A DNA stretch of 64,000 bases, from NCBI RefSeq assembly GCF_055900595.2, contig NZ_CM148325.1; one strand, 5' to 3'. Position 1 is the stretch's first letter; the number at the start of each line of letters is the position of its first letter. The notes below the pieces were generated by a model that was not told the origin of the DNA, ran no database searches, and saw nothing but the letters and a program-made list of their open reading frames with translations. Below, one piece after another: positions 15,301 through 46,831 of the stretch. The translations under genes and the position numbers were made by a program.

Positions 15301-15600
15301 ATGGCGCTTACAAAAGCTGAAATGTCAGAATATCTGTTTGATAAGCTTGGGCTTAGCAAGCGGGATGCCAAAGAACTGGTTGAACTGTTTTTCGAAGAGA
15401 TCCGTCGAGCTCTGGAAAACGGCGAACAGGTGAAACTCTCTGGTTTTGGTAACTTCGATCTGCGTGATAAGAATCAACGCCCGGGACGTAACCCGAAAAC
15501 GGGCGAGGATATTCCCATTACAGCACGGCGCGTGGTGACCTTCAGACCCGGGCAGAAGTTAAAAAGCCGGGTCGAAAACGCTTCGCCCAAAGACGAGTAA
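15301..15600 (+). CDS. ihfA: Integration host factor alpha subunit
   Basis: 99 aa [55 protein letters not shown]. Confidence 0.96.
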
Positions 15601-15613
15601 TCTGATCTAACTA

Positions 15614-15638
15614 AAAAGGCCGCTCTGCGGCCTTTTTT
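15614..15638 (+). terminator. Rho-independent terminator after ihfA
   Basis: AAAAGGCCGC-TCT-GCGGCCTTTTTT. Confidence 0.8.
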
Positions 15639-15700
15639 CTTTTCACTGTCGAAGAGTCACCGTAAAATCAACGCTATGACACTTCAGCAGAACGGATACC

Positions 15701-40237: not shown

Positions 40238-40375
40238 CGTGTAATGGCTGCATGAAATAAACAATAAAATATAAATAACATTATCAGCCTGCCGACGGCT
40301 TGAAGAGAGTCACAGTATCTTGTGCAACATTATTGGAAAGAGTGAGGGGGCGAGGTAGCGAAGCGGAAAAATGTT

Positions 40376-40481
40376 AAAAAAAAGCCCATCGTGGGAGATG
40401 GGCAAAGACTACACACAGCAATTCGTTGTTTCACTCAGGGGATTTCCATGCTTATAAATCAATATGTTGATTTATAACCGT
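40376..40481 (-). ncRNA. rprA: Small regulatory RNA RprA (activator of rpoS translation)
   Basis: Minus strand reads ACGGUUAUAAAUCAACAUAUUGAUUUAUAAGCAUGGAAAUCCCCUGAGUGAAACAACGAAUUGCUGUGUGUAGUCUUUGCCCAUCUCCCACGAUGGGCUUUUUUU with terminal hairpin and U-run. Confidence 0.9.
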
Positions 40482-45727: not shown

Positions 45728-45916
45728 ATGTCTACTCAACTTGATCCCACCCAGCTGGCCATTGAATTTTTACGCCGTGACCAAAGCAATCTTTCACCTG
45801 CCCAATATCTCAAACGTCTGAAACAATTAGAACTTGAATTCGCTGACTTGCTTACTCTCTCTTCTGCTGAATTAAAAGAAGAAATCTACTTTGCCTGGCG
45901 TTTGGGCGTGCATTGA
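45728..45916 (+). CDS. ydiH: Small protein YdiH (62 aa)
   Basis: ATG at 45728 gives MSTQLDPTQLAIEFLRRDQSNLSPAQYLKRLKQLELEF. Confidence 0.75.
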   Translation: MSTQLDPTQLAIEFLRRDQSNLSPAQYLKRLKQLELEFADLLTLSSAELKEEIYFAWRLGVH

Positions 45917-46068
45917 TCCTGACGTAATGCCGCGAGTTCGCCAAATCGGCCTGGATTAATCTTCGTCCAGGTTCGAGGGCCTTCTTAATACTGCTTATCT
46001 ACCCGCCTGATAACGTTCAAAAATAATACAAATCGCAGTTTGTGCTAAAACGGCGGCTTAGCTTTATG

Positions 46069-46180
46069 AGACTATTCTTATCGCCCCTTCGAGCTAAGCC
46101 ACTGTGAGTGCCGGAGATAAGCGCCGGATGGGGTAGAAACCCTTAAGCCTGTGATGCACAGACTTAAGGGTTTTCTTATT
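46069..46180 (+). ncRNA. rydB: Candidate small RNA (position consistent with RydB) ending in a strong terminator hairpin; bounds approximate
   Basis: CCCTTAAG-loop-CTTAAGGG hairpin at 46140-46170 followed by TTTTCTTATTT; ydiH-sufA intergenic location; sequence identity to RydB recalled only approximately. Confidence 0.4.
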
Positions 46181-46402
46181 TCTGAACGCTGCACTTTTTT
46201 ACCTATCTCTTAAATAGTCATTTTCAATACAACTTTTTCTTTTTCATCACAGCCTTAATGCTCCTTAGATAATAATCATTATCTAACAATGAGATACCTA
46301 ATTCTTAGCGTGCCTGTTAACCCACACATCAGGGTCTATGCTTATTAAAAGCAGGCAAAAAGCATGTTTTACGGTAAAGCCCCTGCGTTTGCTGGGTTGA
46401 AC

Positions 46403-46462: not shown

Positions 46463-46831
46463 ATGGACATGCATTCAGGAACCTTTAATCCACAGGATTT
46501 CGCCTGGCAGGGTTTAACGCTGACACCCGCAGCCGCTGTCCACATCCGTGAGCTGGTGGCAAAGCAACCAGGTATGGTCGGCGTGCGCTTAGGCGTGAAG
46601 CAAACGGGCTGCGCGGGATTTGGCTATGTGCTCGACAGTGTTAGCGAGCCAGACAAAGACGATCTGCTGTTTGAACATGACGGCGCGAAGCTGTTTGTCC
46701 CGCTGCAAGCGATGCCGTTTATTGATGGCACGGAAGTCGATTTCGTTCGTGAAGGACTTAATCAGATATTCAAATTTCACAACCCGAAAGCCCAGAATGA
46801 ATGTGGCTGTGGCGAAAGCTTTGGGGTATAG
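46463..46831 (+). CDS. sufA: Fe-S cluster A-type carrier
   Basis: 122 aa ORF with C-terminal CGCGESF motif. Confidence 0.95.

Follow-up and report, generated by a model that had tools for sequence, protein, structure and literature searches.

The interval between ydiH and sufA harbors a small RNA (sRNA) gene that is already known, rydB, together with a terminator hairpin located downstream of it. According to the sequence, its conservation across species and the transcript ends published for Escherichia coli K-12, it is considered probable (about 0.78) that rydB has an independent transcription start and its own Rho-independent terminator, which would yield a primary transcript of approximately 96 nt from which the hairpin is later removed. 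The coordinates given here refer to the window, that is, the whole stretch of 64,000 nucleotides analysed, and the features of the locus are the following:

46067-46075 (+): putative RydB promoter, an extended -10 element (TGaGACTAT), proposed from its conserved block and its position.
46083-46141 (+): mature form of the sRNA RydB, delimited by the RF00118 match and the Term-seq 3' end; 59 nt here and 61 nt in K-12.
G46083-C46087 with G46130-U46134 (+): outer stem P1, which covaries across the rydB family.
46096-46097 (+): 2-nt (AA) deletion, UUC--GAG for UUCAAGAG, seen in the alignments to K-12 and EC42405.
46110-46127 (+): inner hairpin P3 (GCCGGAGAUAAGCGCCGG), invariant across the aligned species.
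The 7 nt that follow the outer stem P1 (+): 3' tail of RydB, AGAAACC.
46137-46173 (+): terminator hairpin (AAACCCUUAAG-C-CUGUG-AUG-CACAG-A-CUUAAGGGUUU), supported by its fold and its conservation.
46171-46183 (+): U-rich tract (UUUUCUUAUUUCU), the first 3 nt of which pair with an A-tract at the base of the stem.

The initial annotation had guessed from the location that this was the sRNA RydB, and had proposed a search with the corresponding Rfam covariance model. When the whole window was scanned, the Rfam rydB model (RF00118) matched 46083-46141 (+) over model positions 1-61 of 61, with a score of 71.7 bits, above the gathering score of 50 (E = 7e-15). In K-12, the curated rydB gene (b4430, 68 nt), also referred to as tpe7 or IS082, lies in the ydiH-sufA interval and shares the strand of both genes, and it aligns to 46071-46136 of the window. 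The identification as RydB was, therefore, correct. The window RydB is 97% identical to the K-12 sequence. With respect to the flanking genes, ydiH occupies 45728-45916 (+; Pfam YdiH, E = 2.5e-43) and sufA 46463-46831 (+; Pfam Fe-S_biosyn), and the hairpin first noticed extends from 224 nt past the ydiH stop to 293 nt short of the sufA start, all on the + strand, in agreement with the location originally described. For the 571-nt ydiH-sufA interval, hairpin included, the median number of places in an E. coli genome is one, and the co-oriented position of rydB between both genes forms part of a synteny shared by Escherichia, Citrobacter, Salmonella, Silvania, and Leclercia. As RydB has been catalogued since 2001, has an Rfam entry and is annotated in K-12, its identification carries little weight as a discovery. 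Nevertheless, rydB goes unmarked in the routine annotation of E. coli in RefSeq, and the RefSeq genomes of this species annotated with PGAP hold no feature at its position.

The hairpin that had been taken for RydB is a different element. The hairpin starts at the point where the Rfam model and the K-12 coordinates alike come to an end, which places it downstream of RydB; the sRNA is thus present in the interval as supposed, but the hairpin lies outside both descriptions of it and begins where RydB ends. The hairpin itself has been confirmed, and its helix is larger than the 8 bp initially reported. On the + strand, CCCTTAAG at 46140-46147 pairs with CTTAAGGG at 46163-46170, as part of a lower stem of 11 bp (46137-46147 with 46163-46173) separated by a C46148/A46162 mismatch from an upper stem of 5 bp (46149-46153 with 46157-46161), which is closed by an AUG loop (46154-46156). 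Folded alone, this element reaches -21.4 kcal/mol (z = -6.17), a value equalled by none of 200 shuffles, and it was scored at -20.0 kcal/mol in a scan for hairpins followed by a T-tract. The CCCTTAAG/CTTAAGGG pattern has a single occurrence in the 64 kb, and 100 dinucleotide shuffles produced none.

As in an intrinsic terminator, the base of the stem consists of CCC/GGG and is followed by a U-rich tract (TTTTCTTATTTCT, 46171-46183, 10 of 13 residues T), and the end of the primary transcript is predicted at around 46177-46179. A simple terminator scan that admitted loops of 3-8 nt and required an uninterrupted stem left the hairpin unflagged, a result due to those loop and stem rules. The element resembles the canonical intrinsic terminators of enterobacterial sRNAs in its stable stem with a G-C base, its U-rich tail, its upstream A-tract pairing with the U-tract, and the way it closes a short transcription unit. 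In addition, RepRanger associates rydB with a Rho-independent terminator (PMC12306157), and rydB from Salmonella has been annotated as 105 nt (Sittka et al. 2008), enough length to span the hairpin; both data fit a longer primary transcript. A repeated extragenic palindrome (REP) was also considered and rejected because the element is single-copy, with one copy in the window, and RepRanger classifies it as a terminator and not as a REP (PMC12306157).

The conservation of the hairpin was studied in an alignment (A2) of 24 distinct sequences (the window and 23 other species) from five genera, among the matches listed. This hairpin clade comprises Escherichia, Citrobacter, Salmonella (arizonae and diarizonae), Silvania, and one Leclercia metagenome-assembled genome (MAG). 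In all 24 sequences a CCCTTAAG-type hairpin starts 3-5 nt after P1, and the T-rich tail is likewise conserved in every one of them. Pairing is kept in 93.6% of the alignment cells, with compensatory double changes in 6 of the 17 pairs; none of 500 shuffles reached either the pairing or the covariation observed, and sliding the partners collapses the pairing. The lower stem, AACCCUUAAG/CUUAAGGGUU (A2 columns 63-73 and 95-105, with the palindrome CTTAAG), is nearly invariant across the five genera. The upper stem, the loop, the linker, and the downstream DNA are variable, and the length of the hairpin loop differs by 1-6 nt among species. The conservation of the lower stem exceeds the needs of a generic terminator, a hint of some further, sequence-specific function.

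The mature 3' end of RydB is located upstream of where the terminator would release the transcript. In the Term-seq data from K-12, the dominant 3' end of RydB maps to 1764708 on the - strand (Adams et al. 2021, PMC7815308, supplementary file 1), which corresponds to 46141 in the window, 5 nt inside the 5' arm of the hairpin and at the final position of the Rfam model. This end reads ...GGGGUAGAAACC|CUUAAG, 7 nt past the outer stem. All three Term-seq rows for rydB have coordinates that begin with 17647, and two of them place the end at 1764708, on the strength of 2.2 and 4.1 million reads; for comparison, these tables credit the tRNA aspV with 3.5 million and the terminator of lpp with 0.18 million (PMC7815308). 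The aspU and aspV entries served to check the register of the 61-nt sequences that accompany the Term-seq data. The transcript end near 46178 anticipated by the initial annotation was consequently not that of the dominant K-12 species, which ends at the equivalent of 46141 (PMC7815308), and the mature RNA seems to have lost the hairpin by trimming. The curated tables contain no end at K-12 coordinates that begin with 17646; as only the strongest peak within each 100 bp was retained, the absence from them of an end at the U-tract is uninformative (PMC7815308). The stretch 1764768-1764708 of K-12 is exactly the 61-nt Rfam RNA. In K-12, the annotated rydB stops 5 nt before the 3' end mapped by Term-seq, and the curated coordinates should probably change to 1764768-1764708 (61 nt).

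At the other end of the gene, the putative promoter is an extended -10 element with its TG at 46067-46068 and the hexamer GACTAT at 46070-46075, weaker than the GATTAT of K-12. The TGaGAyTAT block is kept in the subtype-A copies of rydB across genera, and every rydB subtype among the matches listed has a -10-like box shortly before the outer stem. A -10-like hexamer ending 5-8 nt before the first nucleotide of P1 was found in 59 of 106 copies, as compared with 15 of 105 for a control region shifted upstream by another 22 nt (in both cases among the matches listed). From this promoter geometry, transcription would start at about G46083, which is also the 5' end of the Rfam model. The 5' end annotated in K-12 (1764780, equivalent to 46071) is located inside the -10 hexamer, 12 nt upstream of the predicted start (1764768, equivalent to 46083), so it is probably approximate and 12 nt too far upstream. 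The Cappable-seq supplements contain no entry near K-12 17646xx-17647xx.

The mechanism favored here combines these elements. The extended -10 promoter (46067-46075) would start transcription at about G46083, RNA polymerase would proceed through the conserved 59-nt RydB core, and termination would take place at the 16-bp hairpin and its U-tract (46137-46183), yielding a primary transcript of about 96 nt that ends near 46178. The terminator would also shield the control region of sufA from the transcription of RydB and from any read-through from ydiH. A 3' end within a stable stem requires an endonucleolytic step; an endonuclease would thus open the hairpin, and 3' exonucleases would then stall at P1, leaving a 7-nt tail and a mature RNA of approximately 59-61 nt ending at 46141. 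The length of the tail fits stalling of the exonucleases at P1.

An alternative, which is judged to be distinctly unlikely, is that the hairpin is mainly a processing element, for instance a substrate of RNase III cut at ACC|CUUAAG, with termination being secondary or occurring elsewhere. It would account for a mature 3' end inside the 5' arm of the stem (K-12 Term-seq, PMC7815308), although an end 7 nt past P1 is equally explained by exonuclease stalling. It would also suit a lower stem that is nearly invariant in five genera above which the upper stem drifts with compensation, and the fact that Citrobacter koseri, Citrobacter sp. R56 and Awk 4, and Pseudenterobacter carry different long hairpins at the same position. 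The stems found by the scan are of 16 bp and of 15 bp plus a mismatch for C. koseri and Pseudenterobacter, respectively; in R56 and Awk 4, the long hairpins are followed by only weak T-runs, and the scan chose other, weaker folds. However, the hairpin of the window has everything expected of an intrinsic terminator (a stem base with G-C pairs, a U-tract, and an A-tract as its partner), and in most other genera, among the matches listed, the downstream hairpin is short and located 13-50 nt from the RydB core. Furthermore, typical E. coli substrates of RNase III are longer than a 16-bp stem with a mismatch, which counts against this enzyme.

The other two alternatives concern the neighboring reading frames. 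The initial annotation had considered that the hairpin might serve only as the terminator of ydiH, in which case RydB would be a stable fragment of the 3' untranslated region of the ydiH mRNA. Both elements are on the same strand as ydiH, read-through from this gene would stop at the hairpin, and between the ydiH stop and RydB there is only a weak terminator-like site (45960-45979). Yet a conserved -10 block immediately precedes the RydB core whatever the subtype or context, and RydB and its hairpin persist at entirely different loci. They are also kept beside sufA in Citrobacter, where the gene upstream is of the LysR type; a tblastn search upstream of RydB in this genus returned no YdiH match, with an out-of-frame query that makes it unreliable for distant genera. 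In addition, the Term-seq end is classed as primary for rydB, with reads of the order of the tRNA peaks, and the curated tables contain no 3' end attributable to ydiH (PMC7815308). The notion that the hairpin is only the ydiH terminator is consequently unsupported, and the 3'-fragment explanation is very improbable. Scarcely credible is an origin of the palindrome as an incidental part of a small protein encoded on the opposite strand, proposed by a 38-aa open reading frame with a GTG start (46194..46078) that is present in the program-made list. This candidate was rejected: a 2-nt indel with respect to every other E. coli shifts its frame, the length of the hairpin loop varies among species, and the conservation pattern is that of a paired RNA and not of codons.

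This indel is a peculiarity of the window allele, which lacks the AA found in both RF00118 and b4430 at the junction between P1 and P2, an unpaired and conserved segment. Of the 5,394 complete E. coli genomes that gave a match, none exceeded 97.7% identity over 46060-46145, a value that corresponds to the two gap columns, and the deletion was present neither in these genomes nor in the 23 other species of A2. Apart from this deletion, the nearest genome (EC42405) shows no difference from the window in RydB or the hairpin. The deletion may represent a private mutation or an error of sequencing or assembly. All the pairs of the consensus helices P1, P2, and P3 are standard in the window row of A2, and P1 carries compensatory changes between species in this alignment. 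Folded alone, the core gave unremarkable minimum free energies (z = -0.3 and 0.0) that did not reproduce the Rfam helices, and the support for its structure is covariation rather than thermodynamics.

Downstream of the hairpin, the regulatory region of sufA reportedly contains sites for OxyR, IHF, IscR, and Fur, which Lee et al. are said to have described in 2004. A promoter scan revealed two promoter-like sites that match the constitutive promoters of ydiH and sufA reported by Shimada et al. (PMC3946193); the Fur-box-like GATAAT promoter at 46246-46273 coincides with the one given in that study. Other structured RNAs of the window with Rfam matches above their gathering scores are the Phe leader upstream of pheST at 11577-11701 (+; 74.4 bits), STnc540 at 15542-15700 (+; 69.3 bits), and the sRNA RprA at 40374-40481 (-; 118.5 bits).

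The rydB family extends well beyond the species that share the hairpin. A search with an exact 18-mer of the inner hairpin (GCCGGAGATAAGCGCCGG), using one genome per species, retrieved at least 120 loci. Among the matches listed, approximately 106 are RydB-like copies, nearly all of them labelled as Enterobacterales, with one labelled Martelella alba, and nearly all the tested subtypes score above the Rfam rydB threshold. A hairpin of -12 kcal/mol or lower with a T-tract is found within 170 nt downstream in 63% of 101 copies, versus 5% when the flanks are shuffled, and the sequences of these hairpins are unrelated between genera (all among the matches listed), as expected for a generic terminator. 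At least four subtypes can be distinguished, which share a covarying outer stem and the near-invariant loops GAGCUAAG and GGAGAUAAG. Two or three copies per genome, in unrelated contexts, are present in Pantoea, Erwinia, Rouxiella, Serratia sp. M24T3, Raoultella, and Enterobacter sp. JUb54. In the subtype-C copies (L006, L040, L041, L083, L088, and L115, of Sodalis / Acerihabitans type), the sequence cagaaaagcgcatcggc(t/a)acttacctcctcg is conserved after the terminator. The subtype-D copies of Pantoea (L027:3045, L050:448, L065:942, and L095:2863) have no detectable terminator and are located about 60-150 nt upstream of a co-oriented gene for a calcineurin-like phosphoesterase (Pfam Metallophos) that resembles PrpA/PrpB; from this arrangement, a role as cis-acting leaders is a possibility. 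A RydB-like copy of Atlantibacter subterranea (L042:3936-4000, -) is also found upstream of a phosphoesterase gene, at about 270 nt from the SraC/RyeA-SdsR/RyeB pair (L042:4271-4416), a locus that thus groups several sRNA genes.

With regard to function, RydB in multicopy lowers the expression of rpoS, an effect cited in two works (10.1101/310631, 10.64898/2025.12.22.696124), and a biofilm and motility overexpression screen revealed no RydB phenotype. Co-immunoprecipitation with Hfq enriched the Salmonella RydB weakly (2.5-fold; PMC2515195), RydB has been listed among the Hfq-independent sRNAs (PMC3933206), and in Salmonella it is repressed by ppGpp together with SsrA and SsrS (PMC3963941). 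RydB does not behave as an Hfq-dependent base-pairing sRNA according to the literature on other strains, in which its K-12 3' end is upstream of the hairpin and its Hfq enrichment is 2.5-fold. Hfq-dependent sRNAs keep the terminator hairpin and the U-tail as an Hfq-binding module, whereas the dominant form of RydB is devoid of both, which fits its weak enrichment (PMC2515195) and its inclusion among the Hfq-independent sRNAs (PMC3933206).

RydB shares several features with other stable RNAs. M1 RNA of RNase P and the tRNA precursors are matured by removal of their 3' terminator. Like them, RydB is an abundant, compact, and structured RNA whose mature 3' end is located upstream of a terminator hairpin, and end mapping and sequence together suggest that it may be matured in a similar manner. 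Its covarying outer stem and the near-invariant GAGCUAAG and GGAGAUAAG loops also seem more typical of an RNA that binds a protein or a ligand. It is conceivable, although doubtful, that RydB represents an abundant, terminator-trimmed, compact structured RNA belonging to a multi-copy family of Enterobacterales, and not a conventional base-pairing sRNA.

The re-examination of rydB has modest practical uses and opens no long-standing question. If RydB were indeed a structured RNA of this kind, the terminator-less paralogues of Pantoea upstream of the phosphoesterase gene could act in cis, and the lower stem conserved in Escherichia, Citrobacter, and Salmonella would constitute a sequence-specific maturation signal. 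RydB looks processed, Hfq-independent, and highly abundant, and on these grounds it would be reasonable to study it specifically.
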